A stretch of DNA of 64,000 nucleotides, from assembly GCA_028695015.1 (NCBI GenBank), contig JAQVJR010000001.1, positions 180,498 through 244,497 of the forward strand. Reading direction: 5' to 3'. The notes under the pieces are model-generated. The model was not told the origin of the DNA. It made no database searches and worked only from the letters and a program-made list of their open reading frames with translations. This DNA comes from Minisyncoccota bacterium. Lineage in GTDB: Bacteria; Patescibacteriota; Minisyncoccia; UBA6257. Within the stretch, counting starts at the first letter, position 1, and each line of letters begins with the position of its first letter. Position numbers and translations under genes: made by a program. Positions 32,283-51,748 of the stretch are shown in pieces.

Positions 32283-32777
32283 ATGATTATCTTAGGCATT
32301 GACCCAGGCACTACTCGTATTGGTTGGGCTGTATTAAAGGCAACTAAAAACAATGTAAAACCAATTGATTATGGCTGTTGGGAAACAACTAAAACAACCC
32401 AGGGTCAAAGATTATTAAAAATATCTAAAAATCTAAATCAAGCTATAAAAAAACACCAACCATCTATAGTGGCTATTGAAAAGGTTTTCTTTTTTAAAAA
32501 CGCTAAAACTGTAATGAGTGTTAGTGAAGCTATTGGTGTTATTATCTTAATTCTTGAAAAACATCATTTACCATATATTGAATTAACCCCATTAGAGATT
32601 AAGCGAAATCTAGTTGGTTATGGCCGAGCAGATAAAAAAGATGTTCAAAAAACTATTCAATGCTTCTTTTCTTTAGAGGTAATGCCTAAGCCTGATGATA
32701 TAGCTGATGCCTTAGCTGTTGCCTTAGCCGGTATTAATAAACTCAATGATTCAAAAACAAAACATAAAAATGACTAA
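32283..32777 (+). CDS. ruvC: Crossover junction endodeoxyribonuclease RuvC
   Basis: MIILGIDPGTTRIGWAVL; yebC-ruvC linkage. Confidence 0.85.
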   Translation: MIILGIDPGTTRIGWAVLKATKNNVKPIDYGCWETTKTTQGQRLLKISKNLNQAIKKHQPSIVAIEKVFFFKNAKTVMSVSEAIGVIILILEKHHLPYIELTPLEIKRNLVGYGRADKKDVQKTIQCFFSLEVMPKPDDIADALAVALAGINKLNDSKTKHKND

Positions 32778-35244
32778 AAAAACTTTTTCCCTTATTGGAT
32801 TAATATTAATCATTGCCTGTGTTTTTGCTGGTTTGTTTGTATTTTTCCTTGCCCAGGGATTACCTGATCCTTCTGCTTTTGATGATCGAGTTGTACCCCA
32901 ATCAACTAAAATCTATGACCGCACAGGAAAGATTTTACTTTATGAAATTCATGGTGGTGAAAAAAGAACTGTAGTTAGCTTAGAAAAAATTTCTCCTTAT
33001 GTTCTTAAAGCTGTTTTAGCAGCTGAAGACCATAATTTTTACAAACACCATGGTTTTTCAATCAAAGGCTTTGCTCGAGCAATGATTCAAAACTTATTAA
33101 ACCCTTCTCAGCTTCGCGGAGGCTCTACAATTACCCAACAATTAGCCCGAAATGCTTTCCTAACTCTTGATAAAACAATGGTTAGAAAGATTCGTGAAGC
33201 GCTTTTAACAATAAAAATTGAAAAAAACTATTCCAAAGATGAAATTATAGAACTCTATCTTAATCAAATAAATTTTGGCCATAATGTTTATGGCATTGAA
33301 TCTGCCAGTAAATTTTATTTTAATAAAGAAGCAGAAAGCCTTACCTTAGCAGAAGCCACTTATTTAATCGCCCTTATCCAATCCCCTAACTACTTATCTC
33401 CTTTTGGTAATCATCTTGAAGATTTAGAATCAAGAAAAGAATGGATCTTATCCAGAATTGAACTTCTAAAATATTATCCTAAAGAAGAAATAGAGAATGC
33501 CCGTGAAGAAAAAGTTGTTTTCAGTCCTTCAGAAAAAGGAGAGTTTTTAGCGCCTCATTTTGTAATGTATGTTCGTGGTTTACTTTATGAAAAATTCAGT
33601 GAGGAAGAATTAGAAAAAGGAGGCTATACCATTATTACTACTTTAGATATGAATCTTCAGAATTTAGCTGAAGATTTAGTAGAAAAATATGGTGATTTTA
33701 ATGAAACACAAGTAGGGGCTAAAAATATGGGCTTTCTTGCTGAAGACCCAAATACTGGTCAGATTTTAGCCATGGTGGGCTCAAGAGATTATTGGGATAT
33801 AGAAGCTGAAGGAAATGTTAATACAACCCTGAGCACTCGTCAACCTGGTTCTTCTTTTAAACCAATTGTTTATGCTACTCTTTTTGAAAAAGGATTTTTA
33901 CCAGAAAATATTGTTTTTGATGTAGCTATTGATGGCCGCACTGCTAATTTCTCTACCAACCCTCAATCACCATATCTAGTTACTAATTATGATAGTAAAA
34001 CTAGAGGCCCAGTAAGTTTACGCACTGCTTTAGCTGAATCCTTAAATATCCCTGCAGTTAAAGTATTGTATTTGGCTGGTGTTCAAAATACTATTGATAG
34101 TGCAAAAAAATTTGGCATTACTACTCTTACTGATTCTCCTCAGCATTATGGGTTAAGTTTGGTTTTAGGTGGTGGTGGTATTAAGTTAACTGAATTAGTC
34201 CATGCTTATTCAGTTTTTAATCAAGATGGAATTTTTCATCCCCAAAGCTCTATTCTTCAAATAAAAGATAGCCATGGAGTGATTATTGAAGAATTTACAC
34301 TAGAACAAAAACAAGTTATCAATCTTCAAACTGCTCGCTTAATCACTGATGTCCTTTCAGATAATAGTGCTCGAGCCCCTACCTTTGGTTGGGATAATCC
34401 ATTACATTTTAATAATTTTCAAGTAGCGGCTAAAACTGGTACTGATTCTGAATATCGTGATGCTTGGACTGTTGGCTACACTACTTCATTAACTGCTGGG
34501 GTTTGGGTTGGTAATAATGATCGGTCAATTGTAAGTCAAATTGGAGCTCCTGGTGCTATGTTAGCTGCTCCTTGTTGGCATGAATTTATGGAAAAGGCAG
34601 TTCAATTTTATCCCCCAGGAACCTTTAATAAACCCTTGCCTTATACTTCTGAAGATATTATTAGATCTTCTACTCCCATGCTTAATGGACAATACATCAG
34701 TTCTCAAGAATACAAAAACATCAACACTGAAGAAACTATCATTAAAAAAGAAGTTCATAATATTCTTTATTATGTAAATAAAAACAATCTTTTAGATTCT
34801 CCCCCTCTTAATCCTTTAGGTGATTCTCAATTTTGGGTCTGGGAAACTCCAGTTCTTTTATGGGCTCAGAGAAATATTCCTAATTTTGATACAGAATATA
34901 ATCAAAACTTAGGACCAGAATACATTCCTCTTAAACCCATTCAAGAAAATGAAGAAATTATTGAATTCCCAGATCTCCCTCAAATAGAATTTATCTCCCC
35001 AGACAATGGTGTTTTTGTTAGTTCAGATTTTAATATTGAAATAGAAATTAATAGTACTGATGGAATTATTGATACTAAAATCTATCTTAATCAAAAACTC
35101 TTAGGTTCTTTAAATAAAATAGAAGAGAATAAATATATCTATAGAATTAACTGGCATGAATTAATTAGTCAAAATGAAATTAAAATTGAAGCCTTTGATA
35201 GCTTCAATCAAAAAGGTACAAATTCTATTATTATCTTTAAATAG
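32770..35244 (+). CDS. Class A penicillin-binding protein (PBP1A: GT51 transglycosylase + transpeptidase) with ~200-aa C-terminal extension (track ORF starts at 32746)
   Basis: TM anchor; GT51 motifs AAEDHNFYKHHGF and GGSTITQQLARN; TP motifs PGSSFKP (SxxK) and KTGTDSEYRDAW (KTG). Confidence 0.85.
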   Translation: MTKKTFSLIGLILIIACVFAGLFVFFLAQGLPDPSAFDDRVVPQSTKIYDRTGKILLYEIHGGEKRTVVSLEKISPYVLKAVLAAEDHNFYKHHGFSIKGFARAMIQNLLNPSQLRGGSTITQQLARNAFLTLDKTMVRKIREALLTIKIEKNYSKDEIIELYLNQINFGHNVYGIESASKFYFNKEAESLTLAEATYLIALIQSPNYLSPFGNHLEDLESRKEWILSRIELLKYYPKEEIENAREEKVVFSPSEKGEFLAPHFVMYVRGLLYEKFSEEELEKGGYTIITTLDMNLQNLAEDLVEKYGDFNETQVGAKNMGFLAEDPNTGQILAMVGSRDYWDIEAEGNVNTTLSTRQPGSSFKPIVYATLFEKGFLPENIVFDVAIDGRTANFSTNPQSPYLVTNYDSKTRGPVSLRTALAESLNIPAVKVLYLAGVQNTIDSAKKFGITTLTDSPQHYGLSLVLGGGGIKLTELVHAYSVFNQDGIFHPQSSILQIKDSHGVIIEEFTLEQKQVINLQTARLITDVLSDNSARAPTFGWDNPLHFNNFQVAAKTGTDSEYRDAWTVGYTTSLTAGVWVGNNDRSIVSQIGAPGAMLAAPCWHEFMEKAVQFYPPGTFNKPLPYTSEDIIRSSTPMLNGQYISSQEYKNINTEETIIKKEVHNILYYVNKNNLLDSPPLNPLGDSQFWVWETPVLLWAQRNIPNFDTEYNQNLGPEYIPLKPIQENEEIIEFPDLPQIEFISPDNGVFVSSDFNIEIEINSTDGIIDTKIYLNQKLLGSLNKIEENKYIYRINWHELISQNEIKIEAFDSFNQKGTNSIIIFK

Positions 35245-35547: not shown

Positions 35548-36684
35548 TTAAATCTTTATTGGCATTAAGATATATACAAAGGTATCATCATCTTTATCTC
35601 TAATTAATCCAGGATTTGATTCTTTATTTAAGCCAATAAAAACTTCTTCATTTTTTACAGCATTTAATCCATCTAATAGAAATCTGTAATTAAAACTAAT
35701 TTCTAAAGCATTCCCTGATATTTCTTTTGGTATTAATACAGTCTGACTCTTGCCTAAAGTTAAATCCTGGGCTTCAAGAATAATTTCTTTTTTATCAGGA
35801 TTAAAACTGAATTTAACATCATTAACCCGACCGCTGAATAAACCTACTATCTTCACTGCTTCAGCTAATTCTTTTTTCTCAAAGACAATTTTATTCTCAA
35901 AATCCTTAGGAATAATTGAAGAATATTTTGGATAATCAGCATTGATTAAACGTGAAATAACTCGAATATTAGAAAAAGAAAATTGAATTTGATTTGATTC
36001 AGGAGTTATCCTGATTAAAGATTCATCACTTTCCATATTTTCTTGAACTAATCTTAAAACTTCTTGAGCTGTTCTTAAAGGAATAATTACTTCAATATCA
36101 TTTTTAATATTTGTTTTTACTTGAGAAGAAGGAAATACTTTTTCTGATAAACGAAAACTATCTGTACCTACTAGTTTTAATGTATTTTTACTTCCTGAGG
36201 TTTCTAATTTAAACAAAACCCCATTTAACTCAGCTTTTGGAGAAGAATAGCTCACACTGGGTAAAATTTGAATTAAAGCTTGTTCAAAATCACTTTTCCC
36301 TATTTCTATATATTTATCTGCTTTTGTTTCTGGAATAATAGGAAATTCTTCAGGATTAAATCCTTGAAAAGTTGTATTGTATTTCCCACTTTTAACAATT
36401 AGATTATTATTCTTTTCTTCTAAGCTTATCTTTTCTTCTGAAAGATTACTCAAGAAATTAGAAAAAGTTTTAGCTGGAATAACAAACTTACCTTCTTTTT
36501 CAGTTTTTCCAGTGATCACTAACTCAATTCCAATTTCCAAATCAGTAGCAAAGACATGAAGTTTATTAGTATTTGTTTTTAAAAGGATATTGCTTAAAAC
36601 AGGAAGAGTTAAATTTTTTCCAGTTATTTTCTCAGCAGAATTAATTGCTTTTTTAATTGTTTCCACCAAAGTAGTAAATTTCAT
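35548..36684 (-). CDS. dnaN: DNA polymerase III beta sliding clamp
   Basis: Three-domain ~378-aa clamp; MKFTTLVETIKKAINSAEKITGKNLTLPVLSNILL. Confidence 0.9.
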   Translation of the reverse strand: MKFTTLVETIKKAINSAEKITGKNLTLPVLSNILLKTNTNKLHVFATDLEIGIELVITGKTEKEGKFVIPAKTFSNFLSNLSEEKISLEEKNNNLIVKSGKYNTTFQGFNPEEFPIIPETKADKYIEIGKSDFEQALIQILPSVSYSSPKAELNGVLFKLETSGSKNTLKLVGTDSFRLSEKVFPSSQVKTNIKNDIEVIIPLRTAQEVLRLVQENMESDESLIRITPESNQIQFSFSNIRVISRLINADYPKYSSIIPKDFENKIVFEKKELAEAVKIVGLFSGRVNDVKFSFNPDKKEIILEAQDLTLGKSQTVLIPKEISGNALEISFNYRFLLDGLNAVKNEEVFIGLNKESNPGLIRDKDDDTFVYILMPIKI

Positions 36685-38704: not shown

Positions 38705-39037
38705 ATGTTGCCTAAGAGTAATAGAATTAATTCTTCTATTATTTTCAAAGAAATTTTGCAACGAGGCCAAAGAAAAGAACATCTATATTTTAGAGTTTTG
38801 TTTCTAAAGAACAATCTTAAAAAATCTCGTTTTGCAGTTATTGTTAGTTCAAAAAATTATCGTTTGGCAGTAAAAAGAAATTTAATAAAAAGAAGAGTAA
38901 AAAATATTTTAAGAGAATTAATAAACTCTCTTCCCAAAGGTTTTGATGTTCTTATTTTCATTAAAAAAGATTGCCTTAATATAAGTTTCCAAGAGTTACA
39001 AACTCAGTTAAAAGAACTTTTACTAAGAATATTATAA
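38705..39037 (+). CDS. rnpA: Ribonuclease P protein component
   Basis: Basic 110-aa protein in the rpmH-rnpA position; RnpA-like region FAVIVSSKNYRLAVKRNLIKRRVKNILRE. Confidence 0.85.
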   Translation: MLPKSNRINSSIIFKEILQRGQRKEHLYFRVLFLKNNLKKSRFAVIVSSKNYRLAVKRNLIKRRVKNILRELINSLPKGFDVLIFIKKDCLNISFQELQTQLKELLLRIL

Positions 39038-39040
39038 AAA

Positions 39041-39721
39041 ATGATTCAATTATTAATTTATCAACCTCTGTACAATATTTTAACTGTTTTCCTAAATATC
39101 TTTCAGGGCGAATTAGGATGGGCGATTTTAGTTTTAGCAGCTTTAATTCGTTTTATTATTTGGCCTTGGCATCAAAAAGCAATGGATAATCAAAAAAAAA
39201 TATCTCAATTACAGCCAAAAGTCAAAGATATTCAGAATAAATACAAGCAAGATCCAGTAAAAGCCAATCAAGAAGTGATGAAGATATTTCAGGAAGAAAA
39301 CGTTAGCTTAGGAGGGGCTTATATTTTTTTGATCACTCAGCTCTTTATCTTTTTAAGTTTATTTGCATTTTTTAACCAAGCCATTAATAGTGATTGGTCC
39401 TCATTTCTTTATCCATTTATTAAGTTAAATACGGAAATAAACTATTTATTTCTAGGATTAATTGATTTAAAAATGCCTAGTTTAATTTTAGCTATTGTAT
39501 CTGCTTCTTTAAATTCAACCTTAGCTTTTTCTCAATCTTCAGTTGGGCAAAACAAAACGATGATGCTTCTTTTGCCTTTTATTATCTTGCTTTTTTATCA
39601 AAAATTCTCTGCAGTTGTTATTCTTTATTGGATAGGTTTTAGCTTAGTTAATATTTCACAAGAGTTTTTTATGAAATCCAGGAAAAAACAAGACATTGCT
39701 ACAAGTAATAATAAAATCTAA
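39041..39721 (+). CDS. yidC: Membrane protein insertase YidC (short form)
   Basis: Multi-TM 226-aa protein in the rnpA-yidC-jag context. Confidence 0.75.
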   Translation: MIQLLIYQPLYNILTVFLNIFQGELGWAILVLAALIRFIIWPWHQKAMDNQKKISQLQPKVKDIQNKYKQDPVKANQEVMKIFQEENVSLGGAYIFLITQLFIFLSLFAFFNQAINSDWSSFLYPFIKLNTEINYLFLGLIDLKMPSLILAIVSASLNSTLAFSQSSVGQNKTMMLLLPFIILLFYQKFSAVVILYWIGFSLVNISQEFFMKSRKKQDIATSNNKI

Positions 39722-39737
39722 TAAAGTTTTTATTTAA

Positions 39738-40211
39738 ATGAAAACAATAGAAATTAAACAATTTTTAGAAAATATTTTATCTATTATTGGGTTTTCAGAT
39801 TTTGAAATTAATATTCAAGAAAATCCTCAAGATAATTTAATACAAGTTTTTTTAAAAACTGATTCTCGAATTGATGACAGTGGTTTATTAATAGGTAGAG
39901 ATGGAGAGAATTTACAAGTTTTTGAATATCTTTTAAACATGTTTGTAAGAAAAAACGCCACAGAGATACAATGGCGTATTATTTTAGATATTAATAATTA
40001 TCGGGCAATTCAAGAAGAGAAATTAAGAGAATTTGCTAGGAAAATAGCTCATCAAGTAGCTTTAACTAATCAGATAATGGAATTACCTCCAATGAGAGCT
40101 CGAGACAGGAGAATTATTCATTTAGAAATTGCTTTAAGGAGTGATGTTATCACTGAAAGCATTGGTGAAAACAAAGAAAGACATATTGTAATTAGGCCTC
40201 AAGATAAATAA
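39738..40211 (+). CDS. jag: Jag/KhpB-like RNA-binding protein (KH + R3H)
   Basis: Position after yidC; R3H-like C-terminus RDRRIIHLEIAL. Confidence 0.7.
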   Translation: MKTIEIKQFLENILSIIGFSDFEINIQENPQDNLIQVFLKTDSRIDDSGLLIGRDGENLQVFEYLLNMFVRKNATEIQWRIILDINNYRAIQEEKLREFARKIAHQVALTNQIMELPPMRARDRRIIHLEIALRSDVITESIGENKERHIVIRPQDK

Positions 40212-40219
40212 TTTTTTTA

Positions 40220-41080
40220 TTAAGAACAAAAGAAGGCTCCACCAGTTTTACAATTAGGCATATTAATCTCAAGATGAAAACCACTTCCATATTGAGATCC
40301 TTCTGGGGAGTATTCATCTATAACATCAAAGCCAGATGCATTAGCAGCTTTAATAAAGGCTGTTCTTGTTGTAATGCCTGGGTCTTTACCAAATCCCACA
40401 TCAACACAAGTACCAATTTTATGACAATTTGATACATGATGAACTGTGGTAATGCATTCATTTCCAATAACTGAGACACAAGCTTCTGTGACCTGCCATC
40501 CCTTTGGAGCATTACTATTAACTAATTTTAATAAACTTTCAGCAACACTTTCTTCAATATAAGCTCCATTAGGAAATTCCCAACTCAATGGGATATTAGA
40601 ATATTTTCCAGAACCTGCTCCAATTAAAACAAAATCACCTACAATTACCGGCAATTGTTCCGTTTCTATTGGTGGCTTAACTGTTGTTGGTTTTGGCTCA
40701 GGTGTTGTTTTGAGAAGATTTGGATTAATTGTGTTTAGGATAAGCCAAAAAGAAAACAATAAAACAATTCCAATAAAAGTATTAATAATTCTTTCCTGGG
40801 CTTCTTTTTGTTGTTCAACATTTCCACCAGCAGTAAGATATTGAAATCCAGCATAAATAATCATAATAAAAGCGAATAATCCAGCTAATCTAAAAGCCCA
40901 TAGAACTAGGTATTTAACTAACTCTTCTATTGCATTTTTAGTTTGAAATTCAATTACCTCATAAGAATTAGTGACAGCTTCAACAACTAATCCTTGGCTA
41001 AAATTTAAACAACAAGCGAATACAATCAATAACAGAGTGATATTCTTAAAATTACAATACTGATTTAAAGACAGAAACAT
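40220..41080 (-). CDS. Membrane-anchored protein: N-terminal signal plus two hydrophobic helices (VirB2/TrbC pilin-like topology) fused to a C-terminal LAS/M15-like zinc-peptidase domain; candidate T4SS-associated cell-wall hydrolase
   Basis: Signal-like MFLSLNQYCNFKNITLLLIVFACC; helices LVLWAFRLAGLFAFIMIIYAGF and FIGIVLLFSFWLIL; C-terminal SNCHKIGTCVDV (HxxG, H-x6-D) and GFHLE (HxE), resembling VanY/M15 SxHxxGxAxD...WHxE. Confidence 0.4.
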   Translation of the reverse strand: MFLSLNQYCNFKNITLLLIVFACCLNFSQGLVVEAVTNSYEVIEFQTKNAIEELVKYLVLWAFRLAGLFAFIMIIYAGFQYLTAGGNVEQQKEAQERIINTFIGIVLLFSFWLILNTINPNLLKTTPEPKPTTVKPPIETEQLPVIVGDFVLIGAGSGKYSNIPLSWEFPNGAYIEESVAESLLKLVNSNAPKGWQVTEACVSVIGNECITTVHHVSNCHKIGTCVDVGFGKDPGITTRTAFIKAANASGFDVIDEYSPEGSQYGSGFHLEINMPNCKTGGAFFCS

Positions 41081-41088
41081 TTATTGTT

Positions 41089-41991
41089 TTATTTAAATTT
41101 TAATATTTGTCCTGGTTTAAAAAATCCAGGTAAACCAACCTCCCATTCAAAAAATCGAAATGTAGGCACAGGTATTGTTTGCACCAATTCTTCTACAGTT
41201 TGTTTTGTTGAATAAGCACCTAAAGAAGCTAATAACTCTTTTAGGATTATGGGGCAAGCTTGACCAATAGCCATGGAAACAGGAACTCCTAATCCCCAAG
41301 GAAGAGCAGTAGCTGCATTTGATAACATTCCACAAATCCAATCAACATCTAAACCAACGCCTAATAAATCTAAGAACTTATCCTGAACTAAATCACCTAT
41401 ATCACCAAATTGAAGTGCTGCCTCAAGAAAATCTGAACGCAAGTTTTCAGGAATTGGCGATCCTTGATTGATAACATTTTTTAATATGTTTTTATCAGTA
41501 ACAGAAAAATTACCTTTATCTGCTATTTTATTAAAATATCCTTGTAGCTTTTCTGGAATGTCTTTTCCTTTTTGAATAACATCTTCTACTTCATCATATA
41601 ATTCTGTTGTAATCCCAGAAACATCTGCCAAGTCTTGTAAGGTTTTAATATTTTTAGCAGCTTCAGTTTGAGCAGCAGATTGCTCTACTGAGCCCACAAT
41701 ATAAACAGGTTGTGCTTCGCCTCCACCACAACCACATCCTGGATTTAAAGGCAAAGGGTCAGTAAGAGCTGGAGATTCTCCAGAACATTTATTCTTACAG
41801 AGAGCTTTACAAGTATATTCTCCATTTTCATCATCTCGATAACATTCTTTGGTTTCTGAATTACAAGAATAACGAGCTTGGGAAGCAGCCAAAGCTTCTT
41901 TGGTTATTAATAAGTTCCAAAAAAACAAATTCACAACAAACACAATTAGAAAAAATACAGATATCTTATTATAAAAATTTGTTTGTTTCAT
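41089..41991 (-). CDS. Secreted Cys-rich hypothetical protein (T4SS-like locus)
   Basis: Signal peptide; N-terminal Cys cluster YSCNSETKECY...CKALCKNKCSG...GCGCGGG. Confidence 0.45.
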   Translation of the reverse strand: MKQTNFYNKISVFFLIVFVVNLFFWNLLITKEALAASQARYSCNSETKECYRDDENGEYTCKALCKNKCSGESPALTDPLPLNPGCGCGGGEAQPVYIVGSVEQSAAQTEAAKNIKTLQDLADVSGITTELYDEVEDVIQKGKDIPEKLQGYFNKIADKGNFSVTDKNILKNVINQGSPIPENLRSDFLEAALQFGDIGDLVQDKFLDLLGVGLDVDWICGMLSNAATALPWGLGVPVSMAIGQACPIILKELLASLGAYSTKQTVEELVQTIPVPTFRFFEWEVGLPGFFKPGQILKFK

Positions 41992-42021: not shown

Positions 42022-42444
42022 TTATGCTTTAGAAGATTTTTTAGTAATTTTTTCAACAACTCCTTGTGATAAATAAGCAAAAATAACAGTTCCAGTGGTA
42101 ATTGGCAAAATACTAGCAATAGGCAATAAGTCTATTAATTGACCACTTAGGATTAATTTTGTTCTCATGCCAGTGATAATACTAATAAATAATATATAAG
42201 CGGAAAAAGGAAGAGCTATTAACCAAACAAAAAACTGAATTCCTGGAATTAAGCCCAAAACTACTTCTATAATATCCTTCATTATAGCAGGGATAAGAAG
42301 CAAAAGAAAGATAATAATATCCATCTTTTTTTCCTTTGGCTTTGTTTCTGGTGCTTTCTCTTCAGGGGAGGTTTCTTTTTCCTCAAGTCCTGTTGGTTGT
42401 TGTTCTATCAAAGATTCTTCTTTATTTGGTGTTTGTTCTGTCAT
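42022..42444 (-). CDS. Small polytopic membrane protein with acidic N-terminus (T4SS-like locus)
   Basis: About 3 TM segments (IIIFLLLLIPAIM, FFVWLIALPFSAYILFISII, LLPIASILPITTGTVIFAYL). Confidence 0.4.
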   Translation of the reverse strand: MTEQTPNKEESLIEQQPTGLEEKETSPEEKAPETKPKEKKMDIIIFLLLLIPAIMKDIIEVVLGLIPGIQFFVWLIALPFSAYILFISIITGMRTKLILSGQLIDLLPIASILPITTGTVIFAYLSQGVVEKITKKSSKA

Positions 42445-42454
42445 TAATATTTAA

Positions 42455-44251
42455 TTAAGACTCAGATTTTAATTGCTTTTTCGCTTCTTTAATAGCTAAA
42501 AGCTGAGCAGGATTTGAAGTGATAATTTGGTCCTCAGCATAAGAAGCTACAATTTGAATAGCCGCATGTTTTTCTTGGGCAAAAAATAAACCAGTGCCCA
42601 CAGGAGATTGCAAGAGAATTGTTTTTTCTTGCTCAGTAAGATTTAAAGCTTTACCGATTATTTCTATATTTGCTGGAGATTGGCGAAGCAATAATGACAG
42701 GGAAGAATTAGTAATAATAGGTTTACCATAAGGAGAAGCCAAGGCATCTTCAATGTCTTGAGTAATAAAGGTAACTCCTAAATAATATTTTCTAGCTCTT
42801 TTTATTAAACTAAATAAGAAAGAAGCACTTTCCTCATGATTTAAGAGCCACCAACCTTCATCAATAATAGCAATTCTTTTTCTAAGATCTTTCTTTATCA
42901 TTGTCCAGATATAGTTCAAAACAACATACATGGCAATAGGTCTTAATTCATCTGCCAATTCCCTAATGCCAAAAACAACTAGTCGGTTATTAATATCAAT
43001 ATTTGATTGTTTATTAAGAAAACCAGCATAAGTTCCTTTAGTGAATTTATAAAGTTTAGCTGCTAAATCTTCTCCCCCCTCAATATTTTCAAGAACATTT
43101 TCTAAATCTTCCATTAAAGGTGGTGCTTTTTGTTCAGTCATGTTTTCAGGAAAAATATCCCGACTGGCATAAGTTTGAATAATGGCTTGATCTAAAATTA
43201 ATTCTTCTTGAGGGGTTAATCCGCCAAGCATTAATTTAATAAGTCCAATAAGACTCAAGACATGATTTCTAAAAACTTCTTCATTTGTTTCCTCTTCTTC
43301 TTTTACCAGAGGCAATTCAAAAGGATTAATATTATCTTCAGAAGCCACAGCAATATTAAAATAGCTGCCACCAATTGATTCAGCTAAATATTGATATTCA
43401 TTTTCCGGATCAATAATTAAAATATTAGTACCTAATAAAAGAGAGCGGAGAATTTCTAATTTAATAGCATAGCTTTTCCCAGCTCCAGTTTGAGCAAAAA
43501 CTACCATATTTGCATTTGGAAGAGAAAAGCGGTCAAAAATTATTAGACTATTATTATGGATATTAATGCCATAAAGAATTCCTTTATTATCTGAAAGATC
43601 TAAAGAAGAAAAAGGGAAAAGTGTAGATGCTGGTTGAGAATTTAAAGGCGTAGTTAAAAGCAATCTATTAACCCCAAGAGGCATAGTGCTTTCTAATCCT
43701 TCAAATTCTCTAAAAACAGCAGGTTTAGCATAAATAAGTTGTTGCTCTAATATGTTTCGGATTTTACTCTCTACTTTTGAAAGCCCTTCTTGGCTGTTAG
43801 AATAAAAAGTGATATAAACACCAACATCAAATAATCTCTCACTGCCTTGTTGAATTGTATCTCTTAATTTCTCAACATTAGATAAAGCTGCTTCTAATAA
43901 AGGATTACGAACTAATCCTCTTTCAGCTTCAATATTAATCTGAGCTTGAATTTCCGCAGATTTTTTCCTTAAATTTCTTAAAACTTTATTAATATCAAGA
44001 GGATGGAAAAAGATAGAAATATTAAAAGATTCATCAAGATTAACAATCGAAGAAAACCAATTAGAGGCTAAATAATCTGGATAAGTTAAAACAAAAAGAG
44101 TAGCACAATATTGCTCTCCTAATTTAAGGTAATTTGTGTTTATTTCTAATCCAGCTGGAGCAATTAAGTTCTGAAGTGTAGAAAAAGCTTCAGTATAAAT
44201 AGCTTCCTGAGGTTTTATTTGTTTTTTCCGTGAGAAGAAAGGTAATTTCAT
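42455..44251 (-). CDS. virB4: VirB4/TrbE-family conjugative ATPase, C-terminal 598-aa part (gene split, see 44263..44952)
   Basis: Walker A VVFAQTGAGKSYAI; Walker B region IAIIDEGWWLL; N-terminal APAGLEINTNYLKLGEQYCATLFVLTYPDYL typical of Gram-positive VirB4. Confidence 0.75.
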   Translation of the reverse strand: MKLPFFSRKKQIKPQEAIYTEAFSTLQNLIAPAGLEINTNYLKLGEQYCATLFVLTYPDYLASNWFSSIVNLDESFNISIFFHPLDINKVLRNLRKKSAEIQAQINIEAERGLVRNPLLEAALSNVEKLRDTIQQGSERLFDVGVYITFYSNSQEGLSKVESKIRNILEQQLIYAKPAVFREFEGLESTMPLGVNRLLLTTPLNSQPASTLFPFSSLDLSDNKGILYGINIHNNSLIIFDRFSLPNANMVVFAQTGAGKSYAIKLEILRSLLLGTNILIIDPENEYQYLAESIGGSYFNIAVASEDNINPFELPLVKEEEETNEEVFRNHVLSLIGLIKLMLGGLTPQEELILDQAIIQTYASRDIFPENMTEQKAPPLMEDLENVLENIEGGEDLAAKLYKFTKGTYAGFLNKQSNIDINNRLVVFGIRELADELRPIAMYVVLNYIWTMIKKDLRKRIAIIDEGWWLLNHEESASFLFSLIKRARKYYLGVTFITQDIEDALASPYGKPIITNSSLSLLLRQSPANIEIIGKALNLTEQEKTILLQSPVGTGLFFAQEKHAAIQIVASYAEDQIITSNPAQLLAIKEAKKQLKSES

Positions 44252-44262
44252 AATAGTATTAT

Positions 44263-44952
44263 TTATTCATTAAGTTCTGAAGGGATAGGAATAGATTCTC
44301 TTTCAAAAGTTTCTGGATTGTATAAATTAAAAAACAATTCTATCAATTCTTTAGTTGTTAAAGGTTGAGCTTGTAAGTTCATACGATTGAAATTATTTAT
44401 AACATTGCTTTGGCGAATCATTAGTTGCTGATAATATTGGTTAAATTCATCATTAGATAAAGAAAGAGTTTTAGAAAAAGCCTGATGTTTTAAATTAAGC
44501 AGGTTTTTATATGCCTCTACTATTTGTCCAAAAATGTCTTTTGGTTTAAGGATAATAGGATCATAAGGAATCACCACATAGAATTTTTTCTTCATAATAT
44601 TGCTTTCAGTAACTAATCCTTTAATAAAAGAATGATAGTCCTCTCCTTGTAATTTAAGTAAAGTATTTGTTTCTTGATTAATTTTTTCCTGAAGAAAATT
44701 TAAATAAGAAGCAATATGAACACGGCGTGAATGGGCAATAACTTCTAATGTAAAATCTAAGTTATTTAATAAATTACGCCAATTAGTTAAAATACTAAGT
44801 TGTTCTTGTTCTGATTTTAAATCTAAATTTATTCCAGAAACAGCTAAAACAGAACGCAAGGATCCGTTTTTTAATATAACAACTCCTTTTTTAATTTGAT
44901 GAATAGAAAGAAGTGATTGACTACTAAAACTTTCTTTTTGTTTTTGAGGCAT
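44263..44952 (-). CDS. virB4: VirB4 N-terminal fragment (229 aa) as a separate ORF in a different frame
   Basis: IHQIKKGVVILKNGSLRSVLAVSGINLDLKSEQEQ...FYVVIPYD resembles the N-terminus of Firmicutes-type VirB4/TcpF/PrgJ; 11-nt gap to the next ORF. Confidence 0.55.
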   Translation of the reverse strand: MPQKQKESFSSQSLLSIHQIKKGVVILKNGSLRSVLAVSGINLDLKSEQEQLSILTNWRNLLNNLDFTLEVIAHSRRVHIASYLNFLQEKINQETNTLLKLQGEDYHSFIKGLVTESNIMKKKFYVVIPYDPIILKPKDIFGQIVEAYKNLLNLKHQAFSKTLSLSNDEFNQYYQQLMIRQSNVINNFNRMNLQAQPLTTKELIELFFNLYNPETFERESIPIPSELNE

Positions 44953-44953
44953 T

Positions 44954-45352
44954 TTATTTATCTAAAATTTCAGTTAATTTTTGAAGGGTTTCTTTATCTA
45001 AAGATTTTTGAGTGGTCACTGTTTCACTTTTCTCATGTTTGGATGAAAGAACTTGAGAAGGTTTTTTTATAACTTGTTCTTTTTGCCAAAGATAATATTT
45101 TGGTAGCCAAAAATGACGAAAAGCAGATAGAATCAGAGCATAAATTGGTTGATTATGTAATTGGCCAAACGTAAGAAATAATCCAAATGGGGCTATAAAT
45201 GCAAAAACAATAAACCAAAGCCATAATTGTAAAATAAAAAACAAGATAACAAGAATAATAGCAAAACCTAATAAAATCCAAAGCTGGGTAAAGGTAACTA
45301 ATCCCATTAATTTAGTTTCTTCTTCTATAAATTTTGGTACTTGATAGGCCAT
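44954..45352 (-). CDS. VirB3/PrgI-like small 2-TM protein
   Basis: MAYQVPKFIEEETKLMGLVTFTQLWILLGF, then two hydrophobic helices; positioned just 5' of virB4. Confidence 0.5.
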   Translation of the reverse strand: MAYQVPKFIEEETKLMGLVTFTQLWILLGFAIILVILFFILQLWLWFIVFAFIAPFGLFLTFGQLHNQPIYALILSAFRHFWLPKYYLWQKEQVIKKPSQVLSSKHEKSETVTTQKSLDKETLQKLTEILDK

Positions 45353-45358
45353 AATTAA

Positions 45359-46396
45359 TTATGATGTTTTTCCAAAAGGACTTTCCTTTTTATACTTTTC
45401 ATATTGAACCGGCTTAGGATCAAATTCTTTTTCCTTTGATCTTTTTTTCATCTCTTGTAATTTAACATCCAGAACATAAGGTTTTTTATCAGGAGATTTT
45501 TGAATTGGTTTTTCACTTGTAAATTCTTCACCTCTACCTGTTAAAACAGTAGAAGGTTCTGTTTCTGGTACTTTCTTTCTTTCTAAAGGTTTTTCTTCTA
45601 CAGCTTCTTTATCTTCTTTTTTAGATTTTAAAACTTTTTTGATTTCCTCTACAATTTTAGGTTGAGCATCTTTTTTAGTTATGGCCTCTAATAGCTTATT
45701 ACGGATTTTTTCTTGCTTGATTAATGTTGTTTCTGGCACGGTAACTTTTTTAAGCTCTTCTATTTTATTTATTGGTTTTGTTACCTTAACTTCTGTTGGC
45801 TCAGGGGCAATGTATTCAGGAATTGGTTCAGGCTTAATGATTTCTGATTCTGGAATCCTTGCTTGAGGTTTTTCTGTTTGTGGCTTAATAGTTTTGGATT
45901 GAGGCATAGTAAATTTGTCTAAAGGTTCTTTTAGTGCCTCTGGCTTTATTTTTTCTGCAATAGATTGAATATCAATTTCTGTAATTTGATTTTTTTCAGA
46001 AAGTTCTTTTTTAGGCTTTTTTTCAAAACTACCCAAAGCTGGTGTTTTAAATTGTATTGGTGGTTTTTCTTGAGAAATGGTTGGTCTAGATTTAAACTGC
46101 AGTAAGTCTTTTTTGTATTGATCAAAGATTTTATCTTGAATTATCTGATTGATAATTTTTAAAGAAGAATCTTTAATTTTTAAATGAGATTTTAGTTTCA
46201 ATGCAAAGTCATCAGAGGAAATATTTAATAAAAGAACATCAGTAACAATTTCATTTAAGATAAATAGTTCCTCTTCATTTAAACCAGCAAGAGAGCCAGC
46301 ATCTTGGATAATAGAAATAACTTTATCAGAATAAAGGGCTTCTTGGAGAGATTTTGGCAAAACATCAAACTTTTTTAAAAACTCTTCTTTTTTCAT
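45359..46396 (-). CDS. Hypothetical K/E/P-rich protein (T4SS-like locus)
   Basis: N-terminal ~100-aa folded-looking domain, then a low-complexity KPE-rich region; no TM segment. Confidence 0.4.
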   Translation of the reverse strand: MKKEEFLKKFDVLPKSLQEALYSDKVISIIQDAGSLAGLNEEELFILNEIVTDVLLLNISSDDFALKLKSHLKIKDSSLKIINQIIQDKIFDQYKKDLLQFKSRPTISQEKPPIQFKTPALGSFEKKPKKELSEKNQITEIDIQSIAEKIKPEALKEPLDKFTMPQSKTIKPQTEKPQARIPESEIIKPEPIPEYIAPEPTEVKVTKPINKIEELKKVTVPETTLIKQEKIRNKLLEAITKKDAQPKIVEEIKKVLKSKKEDKEAVEEKPLERKKVPETEPSTVLTGRGEEFTSEKPIQKSPDKKPYVLDVKLQEMKKRSKEKEFDPKPVQYEKYKKESPFGKTS

Positions 46397-48789
46397 TCTT
46401 CTTTAAAAATGTTATCCCATGTTGAAGCATCAGATGTGTTTTCTAAATCAATGCCGCTTTCTTCTCTTAATGCCCGAGAATCTTTAATGTGTTTATTGAA
46501 TTTTGCTAATGTTGCAGGATCTCTCTTAATAGATTCTATGAAGAGTTTTTGTTTTTCCTCATCAAAATATTTTGGTCCTAAACCTTTCCAAAAAGCAGCC
46601 ATTTGTGAAGCTGAGAATTTTTTAACCAAAGATTGAAAAACTTTATCATAAGCTTCTTCCATGGCTTTTTCTGTTTCATGGGGCAACCAAGCTCCTTGCT
46701 CAATTGATTTTTGATATTCTTTGTCTATAGTTTTTTCAACAAAATCTTTTAATTGGGTTTTATCTTTTAATTTATCAGGTTTTAATGAAGTTAAGGTGGT
46801 TACCTTTTCTTCTATAGAATCTGGAGTGTTAATTAATCTTCCTCCTTCTACTCTAAATTCATGAGGGATTGCTTCAGTGATAGCTTTTTTATTAAACCTA
46901 ATATCATCTTTGTGAAGATTGATGAATTTTGTAGATTCATCTCCTAGTTCTCCCATTTCTGCTAATTTATTAACCAAAGCAATTCTTTTTTCATAGGCAT
47001 TTTTATCCAATGAAGATGGTAAAGGAGCTTTTTCGAGTTGCTTTAAGCTACCTAAGCTTATATTCTCTAAGCCTTTTTCATATTCTTTAACTCTAGTTGC
47101 CTTAGCTTTTTCTCCAGTTACTAGCATTTCTTGGCCAACACCTTTTAATAAAGGAACATGGGTTAAAGCTTCACCTGCTTTTTTATACATTCCAGTTTCC
47201 TTAATTCCCTTAATTGTTTTAGCTCCAACAAAGGCTCCAGCTAGCCATCCAGCTCGACTAACTTGTTTTTGAACAACTTTTCCCACAGCACCACTACTTT
47301 GAATAGAAACAATTAACCCTCCAATTAAAAACATAGAAAAGAGAACTATTTGAATAATCATTGTAATAATGCCCAATTTCTCCTCTTGGGCGCCAAGATT
47401 TGCAAGAAAAACATTCATTTCAGATACAACAACAAGCCCTGCATACAAGGAAACGGCAAAAGTAATAGGAAAAAGACACCATCTAGAAAATTGTCCCCAC
47501 CATAAATTCCAAAACTTTTCAGTGTTTGGTAACACCCATGCAGCAAAAGCAATAGGTGAAACAGCAAGTAAGATAATAATGAGAAAAGACCGAGCAACCA
47601 TAACAAAGAAAATAGCGATTAAAGAGATGAAAACAAATAATCCAATTATACCTAAAGCAGCGATAATAAGAAGGAAATTACCCCAAGAAAGACCCCAGCC
47701 TTTTGTGCTCATCTTAATGTCTTGTCCTTCTACAGTTATAGTTTTAATTTCAGCTTTATCATCATAAGCAAAATTATATTTTTTAACGCCTGAAATTTCA
47801 TTAGTAGCAAAATTATCCATAATTGCTTGAGCAATGTCTTTTTGGCCAGTTGCTTCTTGAGCTAGATTCAAAAATACATAAGTAGTAAATTGAGAAAGAT
47901 CCAGTAATATGCCTGGTAAAATCAAACTAAAGTTAATAAGTAAAGCAATAACTATTAATTTCCAAAGAATATCTTGCCAGCGATATTTTTTAATCCCTAA
48001 AATAGTCGCAATAGCTATAATTATTAAGATTAAAACAAGGGCTAAATTCATAAAATTTCTTAAGATGCTCCAAATTGCTACTACCCCAGGATTTTTAACA
48101 AATCCTCCATAAGTATCAGGGTTTAAAGCCCAAAGAATATTTCCTGTTAATGTATTAATCATTCCACCGATCATTTTTCCAAGTCCTTCAATAGCTCCTA
48201 TTTGAACCAAACAAGCTTTATGTGCCCACCAAGTATCGTTTGCGTTTTTGTCTGATAACCATCCGAAAATTTCAGCAAACCTGTTTTTTGGATTTTCATC
48301 CCCATAAAAAAGAGCATTACAAATTTTTGCAGCATTTGATTCTTGGGCTGTGCCAACTACATCTTCAACATATCCTTCTCGATGAAACTTATCAGTGGCA
48401 ATATTCATACAACACATTCGTGGTATATTACGAACTGGACCACAAAGCTCAGCTCCTTGTACTATTTCTTCTCCTGGAAGACAAGCGATTCTGCATATAT
48501 ATCCAGCTTGCTCACAAGCAGATTTTGATTTTAATTTTTGCTGATCTACCCATGATTCATAATTAAATTTCTCAGGGACACAGCAATTGGTATTTAAAAA
48601 ACTTCCTGTACAGGTAAGCCGTGACTCAAATTTTTCATCATCATTACATCCTGGTCGACATGTTCCCCCAGCTTCAGTGCAAGAATAAGCAGATGCTTGT
48701 AAATTATTGAATTTAAAAACAGGGCTTATTAATAAAAACAAAAGGATAGTGCCAAAAATCCCAATTTTAAATACATTTTTTATTTTCAT
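46393..48789 (-). CDS. virB6: VirB6/TrbL-like polytopic membrane protein with duplicated N-terminal 6-Cys ectodomain modules and long C-terminal cytoplasmic tail
   Basis: Signal peptide; modules CTEAGGTCRPGC...C...CC and CEQAGYICRIAC...C...CC; at least 6 TM helices in the middle; 798 aa. Confidence 0.55.
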   Translation of the reverse strand: MKIKNVFKIGIFGTILLFLLISPVFKFNNLQASAYSCTEAGGTCRPGCNDDEKFESRLTCTGSFLNTNCCVPEKFNYESWVDQQKLKSKSACEQAGYICRIACLPGEEIVQGAELCGPVRNIPRMCCMNIATDKFHREGYVEDVVGTAQESNAAKICNALFYGDENPKNRFAEIFGWLSDKNANDTWWAHKACLVQIGAIEGLGKMIGGMINTLTGNILWALNPDTYGGFVKNPGVVAIWSILRNFMNLALVLILIIIAIATILGIKKYRWQDILWKLIVIALLINFSLILPGILLDLSQFTTYVFLNLAQEATGQKDIAQAIMDNFATNEISGVKKYNFAYDDKAEIKTITVEGQDIKMSTKGWGLSWGNFLLIIAALGIIGLFVFISLIAIFFVMVARSFLIIILLAVSPIAFAAWVLPNTEKFWNLWWGQFSRWCLFPITFAVSLYAGLVVVSEMNVFLANLGAQEEKLGIITMIIQIVLFSMFLIGGLIVSIQSSGAVGKVVQKQVSRAGWLAGAFVGAKTIKGIKETGMYKKAGEALTHVPLLKGVGQEMLVTGEKAKATRVKEYEKGLENISLGSLKQLEKAPLPSSLDKNAYEKRIALVNKLAEMGELGDESTKFINLHKDDIRFNKKAITEAIPHEFRVEGGRLINTPDSIEEKVTTLTSLKPDKLKDKTQLKDFVEKTIDKEYQKSIEQGAWLPHETEKAMEEAYDKVFQSLVKKFSASQMAAFWKGLGPKYFDEEKQKLFIESIKRDPATLAKFNKHIKDSRALREESGIDLENTSDASTWDNIFKEE

Positions 48790-50728: not shown

Positions 50729-51748
50729 ATGGTTGTTCAAAGACAAGGAGAGGGTTTTTTAATTAAGGAGAATATTAACCCAACAATTATTGAAGTCAAT
50801 CAATTAACAAAAACAGCCTATGCTTATTCAGAAAATATTTGTGTTGATGGTAGTCAAATATTAGAAACTGATTTAAATGAAAAAACTGATGAAGAATTTC
50901 CTGATTATTTTATAGTAGTAGATGAGAGTAGTTTTTTAAGCTTAAATGCTCCAACAGAATCTTCAATTCCTTTAATTTCAAGAAATACAACAGTTAGCTA
51001 TACAGTTAAAGAAGGTGATAGCCCTGGGAAAATAGCTGCCCAATTTGGCATTAGTTTAAATACTGTTCTATCAGCTAATAACCTTAATTCAAAATCAGTT
51101 ATTAAGCCAGGTCAAGAGCTTGTTATTTTACCTGTTTCTGGAGTTACTCATAAGGTAAAAAGCGGAGAATCTTTATCATCAATTGCTTCAAAATACAAAG
51201 CATCAATTGATGATATTATTAGTTTTAATAATTTGAAAGATGAAAAATCTATTCAGTCAGGACAGGAAATTATCATTCCTGGAGGAATTCTTGCTTCTAC
51301 AGGCTCTTCAGCAAGCACAACAGTGAAAACAACAAGTGCTTCTTCTTCTGGATTAACACCAATGAAAGAAGATACAAGTTCTTGGACTTGCTATGATGAC
51401 TTTTTTGCTTTTCCAGTTTCTGGTGGTTGGAACAAAGGTGTTCTTCATTACTATAATGCAGTTGACATTATTAGTTCTTGTGGTAGCCCTATTTATGCTT
51501 CGGCAGATGGAATTGTAATAGATGCTAAAGGATCAGGTGCTTATAACTTAGGATATGGTAATTTAGTTAAAGTCCAACATAATAATGGCACAATGACAGT
51601 TTATGCTCACTTAAGTGAAGTTTTAGTAAAAGCAGGAGATAAGGTTTATCAAGGAAGTTTATTAGGCAGAATGGGTGACACAGGGAATTCTAATGGTTGT
51701 CATCTTCATTTTGAAGTTCATGGTGCTCAAAATCCCTTTGTTCAATAA
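50729..51748 (+). CDS. LysM (x2) + M23 peptidase; true start probably upstream at a non-canonical codon, which would add a TM anchor
   Basis: LysM YTVKEGDSPGKIAAQFGISLNTVLSANNL and HKVKSGESLSSIASKY; M23 HLHFEVH. In-frame upstream sense codons encode LFQVVVGFFAFSFLFG with no ATG/GTG/TTG. Confidence 0.75.
   Translation: MVVQRQGEGFLIKENINPTIIEVNQLTKTAYAYSENICVDGSQILETDLNEKTDEEFPDYFIVVDESSFLSLNAPTESSIPLISRNTTVSYTVKEGDSPGKIAAQFGISLNTVLSANNLNSKSVIKPGQELVILPVSGVTHKVKSGESLSSIASKYKASIDDIISFNNLKDEKSIQSGQEIIIPGGILASTGSSASTTVKTTSASSSGLTPMKEDTSSWTCYDDFFAFPVSGGWNKGVLHYYNAVDIISSCGSPIYASADGIVIDAKGSGAYNLGYGNLVKVQHNNGTMTVYAHLSEVLVKAGDKVYQGSLLGRMGDTGNSNGCHLHFEVHGAQNPFVQ

Follow-up and report, generated by a model that had tools for sequence, protein, structure and literature searches.

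Type IV secretion systems (T4SSs) are ubiquitous in Patescibacteria, where they adjoin the replication origin. Which enzyme might open the cell wall for such a machine is the question raised by a single gene that closes a T4SS operon in the DNA analysed here, a stretch of 64,000 nucleotides from a Minisyncoccota bacterium (assembly GCA_028695015.1, contig JAQVJR010000001.1, positions 180,498 to 244,497 of the forward strand), which we refer to in its entirety as the window. We find that the encoded protein is, by sequence, a VirB2-type T4SS pilin in its N-terminal half and adopts the LAS / Hedgehog-DD-peptidase fold in its C-terminal half, where both the metal triad and the general-base glutamate are conserved. 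Within a large family of Patescibacteria proteins, this fusion is the prevailing arrangement. The combination suggests a pilus subunit that brings its own cell-wall-cutting enzyme.

Both constituents are rooted in described systems. The pilins as a family, their association with virB4 and their proximity to dnaA have already been published (PMC12102498, PMC10633639, PMC12857230), and the superfamily of LAS and Hedgehog-like (Hh) DD-peptidases is well known (PMC6027127).

Sequence features of the N-terminal half

Kyte-Doolittle hydropathy analysis of the encoded protein revealed three hydrophobic segments, at residues ~9-37, 54-84 and 96-123, and an AlphaFold2 model derived from 28 input sequences, with a mean predicted local distance difference test (pLDDT) score of 78.8, displays helices at 6-29, 47-83 and 88-118. 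The first is a signal-like helix with a putative position for the signal-peptide cleavage site, followed by an unstructured stretch of low confidence. The other two, with pLDDT values of 80-91, form a hairpin whose short polar loop reads T83-AGGNVEQQKEAQER-97 (TAGGNVEQQKEAQER). Residues 127-144 of the ensuing linker fall below 50 and are predicted to be disordered, and residues 150-286 make up a compact alpha/beta domain with values mostly above 90. An earlier note on this DNA, made before any database search, had proposed a signal and two helices in the layout of TrbC/VirB2 pilins, and this is what hydropathy and model both recover: a two-helix hairpin after the signal, rather than a signal plus a single transmembrane segment. 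Anchoring as a lipoprotein through a cysteine of the signal region was also considered and rejected, as the cysteine is not conserved among homologues and a lipobox is absent.

The assignment to the pilins is carried by profile matches. T4SS_pilin (PF18895) aligns to residues 50-118 over positions 4-71 of its 71, with an E-value of 2.6e-13 and 50.3 bits against a cut-off of 26.6, and the Mbov_0395 pilin-like conjugal transfer family of NCBIfam weakly matches the N-terminal half. In a Pfam scan of 104 relatives, PF18895 was recovered in 90 and TrbC/VirB2 (PF04956) in five; the pilin part of the earlier reading holds. The fusion gene is, moreover, the sole pilin-type open reading frame of the window.

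Comparison of 28 homologues shows how unevenly the polypeptide is constrained: mean pairwise identity amounts to 76% in the hairpin, 56% in the C-terminal domain (hereafter C-domain), 31% in the linker, which varies in both length and sequence, and 30% in the signal. The hairpin loop, GGN-x3-QK-x-AQER, is nearly invariant. As the most constrained segment, the hairpin is probably more than a mere membrane anchor and may keep pilin-specific contacts. Being the best conserved part of the protein and occupying the pilin slot of the operon, the hairpin is better understood as the pilin of the system than as the 'pilin-like anchor' proposed in the earlier note.

A Hedgehog-like domain at the C-terminus

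The translation contains S217-N-C-H220-K-I-G223-T-C-V-D227-V, conforming to S-x2-H-x2-G-x3-D-V, and further on F268-H269-L-E271; both motifs occur exactly as the earlier note had quoted them, where they were taken as the zinc site of an LAS/M15 peptidase of the VanY kind. Curated models did not recover such a relationship. The C-domain matches no Pfam or NCBIfam model, and the proposed HMMER check for Peptidase_M15 and VanY came out negative, the window protein reaching no Pfam M15 model at E-values up to 1 and none of 14 C-domains doing so up to 10. HH_signal (PF01085) likewise gave no match for the window protein; one close relative was found at an E-value of 0.019 and 4 of the 104 relatives lay below 0.01. 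A distant relative, P0158, is alone in exceeding the HH_signal cut-off (25 versus 22.1 bits) and also alone in touching M15_3 (PF08291; E-value 0.0017, 18.9 bits, below the cut-off of 23.2).

Searches against the Protein Data Bank (PDB) with the C-domain as a single sequence (phmmer) returned noise, with E-values above 0.2, and Foldseek with the full-length model gave nothing below 0.03. Histidine kinases occupied the top Foldseek rows and were rejected as an artefact of the overall shape, a helical hairpin together with an alpha/beta domain. A family profile assembled from 32 diverse C-domains and searched against the PDB sequences, on the other hand, yielded Hedgehog N-domains only at E-values below 0.01 (~19 entries, best 1.8e-4). 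The comparison figures for the C-domain are 9.4 and 9.0 for the Sonic hedgehog (Shh) N-domain, 8.9 for Drosophila Hedgehog, 8.3 for VanX, 8.1 for VanXYc, 7.8 for MepA, 7.4 for both LdcB and VanXYg, 7.2 for VanYB, 6.0-6.2 for phage L-Ala-D-Glu peptidases and LysB4, and 6.1 for the Streptomyces albus DD-peptidase. By sequence and structure, the nearest relatives are the Hedgehog N-domains and then VanX, with VanY/M15B further off. The claim of an LAS/M15 zinc peptidase is accordingly retained for the LAS-type fold and its conserved triad, and abandoned for VanY as the nearest family. Since the C-domain fails the curated M15 and HH_signal models, we place it within the LAS / Hh-DD-peptidase superfamily as a new branch at family level, in a new architecture but not in a new category.

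In the profile alignment, H215, H220, D227 and E256 pair with Shh H135, H141, D148 and E177, in a residue numbering checked on the Shh sequence. E256, at the position of the catalytic glutamate (Shh E177, VanX E181), follows D227 by 29 residues, the same spacing as from D148 to E177 in Shh, and the H-x6-D pattern, the glutamate and the histidine-bearing last strand are in register with H141, D148, E177 and H181/H183 of Shh. The roles of H135, H141, D148 and E177 are described in PMC6027127.

Conservation among the 104 relatives is pronounced. H220, D227 and E256 are each present in every one of them, H215, C219 and C225 each in 99, and the last strand reads H-[FLIVM]-x in 103 after correction of a local alignment shift. 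The residue two positions beyond the third histidine varies: 50 members have H there, giving the canonical H-x-H, 29 have S, 7 have T and 3 have E. In the subfamily of the window protein, the motif is H-[LV]-E in 22 of 22. Together with the Hedgehog profile match in register, this invariance argues that the H-x6-D...H pattern is not due to chance. The metal triad and the general base thus appear to be kept, with H269 or E271 as the predicted third metal ligand.

Compared with the Hedgehog N-domain, to which identity is ~20%, H-x-E replaces H-x-H and an extra cysteine pair flanks the ligands. This pair, C219/C225, brackets the metal ligands as C-H-x4-C-x-D (40406..40426, minus strand), at positions where Shh has L and A, and could be a loop-stapling disulfide or supply extra metal ligands. 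The six cysteines of the domain sit in three short-range pairs, which hints at an extracytoplasmic location. The double Ca2+ site of Hedgehog, with the Shh ligands E90, E91, D96, E127, D130 and D132, is not kept: E127 alone has a counterpart, E199, and the family consensus shows P and T opposite D130 and D132. BacHh proteins, in contrast, retain all Ca2+ ligands (PMC6027127). The fusion partner differs as well, being a pilin here, as compared with the Hint domain in Hedgehog or the N-domains of bacHh (Roelink 2018, PMC6027127). We also compared the M15 groups, namely VanX, VanXY, VanY and LdcB (M15B/D), MepA (M74), phage L-Ala-D-Glu peptidases (M15C) and the Streptomyces albus DD-peptidase (M15A). 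They share the S-x-x-H-x-x-G-x-x-x-D type of ligand loop and an extracytoplasmic wall context, whereas the window protein has no match to Peptidase_M15, VanY, M15_3 or M15_4.

Spread of the fusion and its variants

A word-indexed search retrieved 39 homologues, all with PF18895; in 37 the alignment spans both domains and over half of the query, and in the remaining two it is confined to the pilin part. An exhaustive search with the C-domain profile, at E-values up to 1e-3, returned 198 cluster representatives at 50% identity, and architectures were surveyed in 146 sequences, the window protein and 145 of the 150 listed representatives. The pilin hairpin precedes the C-domain in ~120 of these 146. 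The remainder without a pilin consists of fragments, short signal-plus-domain proteins and three proteins with glycosidase domains, the C-domain following Glucosaminidase in P0090 and P0173 and SLT in P0160. Its position behind Glucosaminidase or an SLT muramidase points to peptidoglycan as the substrate. The pairing of a glycan-strand cutter with a peptide cutter is the standard layout of bifunctional wall hydrolases, and is found also in those of Gram-positive T4SSs (PMC12102498).

The gene order is equally consistent. In 14 loci from genomes and metagenomes, with protein identities from 87% down to 33%, the same series is found: virB6, p345, prgI, trsD, virB4, p140, p300, the gene for pilin and C-domain, jag, yidC, rnpA and dnaA. 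The T4SS context that the earlier note had assumed is hence confirmed, as the fusion closes a virB6...virB4 operon in the window and in all 14 related loci. An assembly or gene-calling artefact was rejected, considering that the fusion recurs in ~120 independent clusters at 50% identity and in the 14 syntenic loci. Among genome records, a metagenome-assembled genome (MAG) of Candidatus Paceibacterota comes closest, at 87% protein identity. A partial copy, P0002, aligns to 82% of the query at 100% identity and was deposited as 'pilin, partial [Bacteroidales bacterium]'; its contig is probably mis-binned, since every close relative of full length belongs to a Paceibacterota or Patescibacteria MAG.

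In searches of the accessible literature, neither a VirB2-type pilin with a wall-peptidase domain nor the C-domain family was found described. NCBI names these proteins 'pilin' or 'hypothetical' only, and the C-domain is without a Pfam model. The author of the earlier note knew of no such arrangement, and the literature searches agree; it is, however, no singular oddity in the survey of representatives. The VirB2-like pilins described from Patescibacteria (PF18895; PMC12102498) belong to the same Pfam family, share the signal and two-helix hairpin and likewise lie beside virB4 and close to dnaA; in Ca. Southlakia epibionticum such pilins are essential (PMC10633639). The fusion protein differs from them by a 137-residue enzyme domain at the C-terminus. 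Furthermore, those pilins were treated as pilins only and often occur as arrays of 2-11 genes, compared with a single pilin gene per operon here, and neither the text of PMC12102498 nor those of its supplementary tables that were searched mention a Hedgehog or M15 domain on the VirB2 hits.

Two loci depart from the common form. The pilin in the same slot of L016 (7773-8222) comprises ~120 residues from its likely start (150 residues from stop to stop) and is without the C-domain, which suggests that the N-terminal part can stand alone as the pilin of the operon and that the enzyme is an add-on. The pilin of L017 carries a more divergent LAS domain, S-H-KYG-C-SV-D ... P-H-L-H (SHKYGCSVD ... PHLHF), that the family profile missed. 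Together, these variants indicate that the domain has been gained, lost or swapped on the pilin.

Proposed function and alternative explanations

We consider it rather probable that the protein is a pilin-borne zinc peptidoglycan peptidase, cutting where the T4SS channel or pilus passes the wall, and infer its topology, metal binding, catalysis, peptidoglycan substrate and site of action as follows. The signal peptide would direct Sec/YidC insertion, and the two hydrophobic helices would form a membrane hairpin with both ends outside, like other VirB2/TraA pilins, whose termini are exposed outside the membrane and, after assembly, on the outer face of the pilus. The Pro/Thr linker of ~25 residues may then hold the enzyme domain of ~137 residues at the outer membrane face, inside the wall. 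There, H220, D227 and H269 are predicted to bind the metal, and E256, aided by H215 and E271, would activate water for the cleavage of a stem-peptide or cross-link bond of peptidoglycan. The enzyme would ride on a subunit that is handled by the VirB4/VirB6 machine, and because it travels with the pilin, we propose that cutting is confined to where the channel or pilus crosses the wall. Polymerisation of the subunit, should it occur, would additionally expose the enzyme on the outside of the pilus, facing the host cell.

The dedicated wall hydrolases of other T4SSs offer a precedent. VirB1, TraG (pIP501), PrgK (pCF10) and CwlT (ICEBs1), whose roles are summarised in PMC12102498, are likewise encoded in T4SS operons, membrane-tethered and extracytoplasmic, with a presumed local opening of peptidoglycan. 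Their catalytic domains are of the SLT/lysozyme and CHAP/NlpC-P60 kinds and are held by an ordinary anchor at the N-terminus, whereas the fusion protein has an LAS metallopeptidase domain with the pilin itself as anchor, and a Pfam scan found neither an SLT/lysozyme nor a CHAP/NlpC-P60 domain in the window protein. There is no homology between them, and a VirB1/CwlT/PrgK-like role, as the earlier note had put forward, is plausible by analogy: the same job might be achieved via an unrelated fold, with the pilin as the carrier. Pfam and NCBIfam scans and inspection of the sequences recognised no other wall hydrolase in the operon. A peptidase built into the pilin would supply the wall-opening activity that is missing in this clade.

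Several observations weigh against this proposal. The C-domain reaches no curated Pfam peptidase model, and the peptidase activity of its closest relative, Shh-N, is itself still disputed (PMC6027127). Where H-x-H is canonical, the window protein reads H-x-E, and H-x-S occurs in a third of the wider family. The L016 operon with its domain-free pilin implies that at least one lineage can run the machine without the enzyme. Finally, a LysM-M23 peptidase encoded ~2 kb from the operon could be the true VirB1 analogue.

Three other explanations deserve weighing, and much of the same evidence bears on them. The peptidase may be directed outwards, as a weapon or drill displayed by the pilus subunits whose real substrate is the wall of the cell that hosts the epibiont. 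Breaching it would give access for attachment, nutrient uptake or transfer, and cutting of the own wall would be secondary; we regard this as unlikely, if still worth keeping in sight. In the one Patescibacteria system studied genetically, epibiotic growth requires the T4SS and its pilins, and the T4SS locus there is without relaxase and coupling protein and may export proteins or act otherwise (PMC10633639, PMC12857230). The hairpin of the fusion is also more constrained than a plain anchor needs, and the fusion is the only pilin of its operon. Additionally, the outward-facing termini of solved VirB2/TraA pili could accommodate a C-terminal domain on a linker of ~25 residues. Archaea have no murein. 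A drill through host walls sits poorly with the co-culture of some Patescibacteria with archaeal hosts (PMC12102498), and polymerisation of a VirB2-type pilin with a 15-kDa appendage is an assumption. In its strongest version, which we hold to be quite unlikely, the T4SS pilus of these Paceibacterota would be made of enzyme-bearing subunits, its filament coated with zinc peptidoglycan peptidases and boring through the host wall on contact. If true, it would be the first conjugative-type (VirB2) pilus with a major subunit that is itself an enzyme, and would show a Hedgehog-like domain at work, in bacteria, on another cell's extracellular matrix.

The domain might instead be catalytically silent, a peptidoglycan- or glycan-binding adhesin that anchors the pilin or pilus to the wall. 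Such a role is in line with its nearest relatives, the Hedgehog N-domains, acting as ligands, with the degenerate second position of H-x-H in half of the family and with the failure to reach any Pfam peptidase model. It is at odds with the presence of E256, H220 and D227 in 104 of 104 relatives and of H215 in 99: non-catalytic Drosophila Hh has lost exactly these residues, the general base and the ligands, by changes of D to T, E to V and H to Y (PMC6027127), which disfavours a silent binder here. The co-occurrence with muramidase domains, too, fits an enzyme partner, and we deem this explanation very unlikely. Least of all do we expect a self-processing pro-pilin, a highly improbable case in which the peptidase cuts the pilin linker in cis or trans and releases a mature short pilin, much as TrbC/VirB2 is trimmed at its C-terminus before assembly; the enzyme would then serve in maturation or be set free as a soluble hydrolase. 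Canonical T4SS pilins are C-terminally processed. The linker is disordered and variable, a pilin-only gene occupies the same slot in L016, and Shh-N has been reported to self-cleave in a 'cannibalistic' manner (PMC6027127). The same domain is nevertheless borne by Glucosaminidase and SLT proteins, in which there is no pilin for it to cut, and comparison of the homologues shows no conserved cleavage motif in the linker.

For the proposal of a wall-opening enzyme carried by the pilin, H220, D227 and E256 represent concrete mutable targets. A VirB2-type subunit with a folded C-terminal domain of 15 kDa also puts to the test current ideas on pilin extraction from the membrane and on pilin stacking. 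Moreover, a large unannotated bacterial branch with Hedgehog N-domains as its closest solved relatives strengthens the argument for a descent of the Hedgehog ligand from wall peptidases.

The T4SS operon and its neighbourhood

The window has a G+C content of ~30%. The features under discussion are collected in Table 1; the operon is tightly packed on the minus strand and converges on jag, with the fusion gene last.

Table 1. Positions within the window of the fusion gene, its encoded segments and the surrounding genes
Feature	Position	Strand	Basis and remarks
Pilin::LAS-peptidase fusion gene	40220..41080	-	Open reading frame list; 286 residues plus stop codon, ATG start
Signal peptide, residues ~1-30	40991..41080	-	K12, hydrophobic core ITLLLIVFACCL, ...SQG; hydropathy and AlphaFold2 helix 6-29
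VirB2-type pilin hairpin, residues 50-118	40727..40933	-	Two hydrophobic helices and conserved loop; PF18895
Pro/Thr-rich flexible linker, residues 124-149	40634..40711	-	AlphaFold2 confidence, homologue variability
LAS-fold (Hedgehog/DD-peptidase-like) domain, residues 150-286	40223..40633	-	
H215-VSNC-H220-KIGTCV-D227	40400..40438	-	Predicted auxiliary His, first two metal ligands (H-x6-D), Cys pair C219/C225
E256 (general-base position) through H269-L-E271 (third-ligand strand)	40268..40315	-	Translation
virB6-like, polytopic membrane protein, first gene of the operon	46393..48789	-	NCBIfam MMCAP2_0566 conjugal transfer domain, 7.2e-8
p345, 345 residues, Lys/Glu/Pro-rich	45359..46396	-	No family match; syntenic in all related loci
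PrgI/VirB3-like membrane protein, 132 residues	44954..45352	-	Pfam PrgI, 5.9e-5; NCBIfam VirB4_plasma N-terminus
TrsD/TraC-like, VirB4 N-domain-like, 229 residues	44263..44952	-	NCBIfam VirB4_plasma, 3.8e-10; TrsD, 1.4e-8
VirB4-type ATPase, C-terminal P-loop part, 598 residues	42455..44251	-	Pfam P-loop_TraG, 4.8e-25; AAA_10, DUF87, CagE_TrbE_VirB
p140, small polytopic membrane protein	42022..42444	-	No family match; syntenic in 14 of 14 loci
p300, signal/transmembrane segment, Cys-rich part, helical repeats	41089..41991	-	No family match; 30 homologues
rnpA, yidC, jag	38705..40211	+	
dnaA	36953..38323	-	
dnaN	35548..36684	-	

Successive genes are separated by little or nothing: virB6-like and p345 overlap by 4 nucleotides, and gaps of 6, 1, 11, 10, 30 and 8 nucleotides follow between p345 and PrgI, PrgI and TrsD, TrsD and VirB4, VirB4 and p140, p140 and p300, and p300 and the fusion gene. 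A scan for operon promoters and terminators gave counts that did not differ from those of shuffled sequence. The VirB3/VirB4 module is split over three consecutive open reading frames (42455..45352, minus strand), and the same split is found in all related loci. Homologues add to two of the assignments, with a faint TrbL_3 match for the virB6-like gene of L002 and a TraC-like domain (PF26593) in the TrsD/TraC-like gene of L001. For p345, the sequence judged by eye, without a hydropathy scan, has no evident hydrophobic (transmembrane) stretch.

Of the genes without family matches, p300 can be connected to the pilin. Its C-terminus ends in an invariant PVPTF-x-F-x-WEVGLPGF, which reads F-x-x-W-E-V-G-[LI]-P-G across relatives and is also present in L017 (L017:7758-8912). 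The gene is separate and syntenic in 11 of the 14 loci and fused to the pilin in the other three; in P0037 (L003, L004 and L014) and in P0012, the p300 motif directly precedes the hairpin within one polypeptide. Such a fusion elsewhere constitutes a Rosetta-stone link, suggesting that p300 is functionally linked to the pilin. The structure model of p300 is weak (pLDDT 64) and gave no fold match.

Outside the operon, scans with Rfam and for tRNAs detected nothing beyond six ordinary tRNAs. A class A penicillin-binding protein is encoded at 32746..35244, indicating that the cell makes peptidoglycan. A LysM-LysM-Peptidase_M23 protein (50729..51748, plus strand) lies ~2 kb past the operon, beyond ksgA, and its gene is conserved near the locus, with an identical placement in L001; it is a second candidate for the wall hydrolase of the system.

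In other lineages of Patescibacteria, the pilin arrays (L022, L023, L025, L028-L030, L043, L046 and L048) include many pilin open reading frames of 300-900 residues or more. In these frames, counted from stop to stop, the hairpin is C-terminal and the extension N-terminal, the opposite of the fusion arrangement. L022 additionally holds a frame of 1736 residues that begins with the hairpin.

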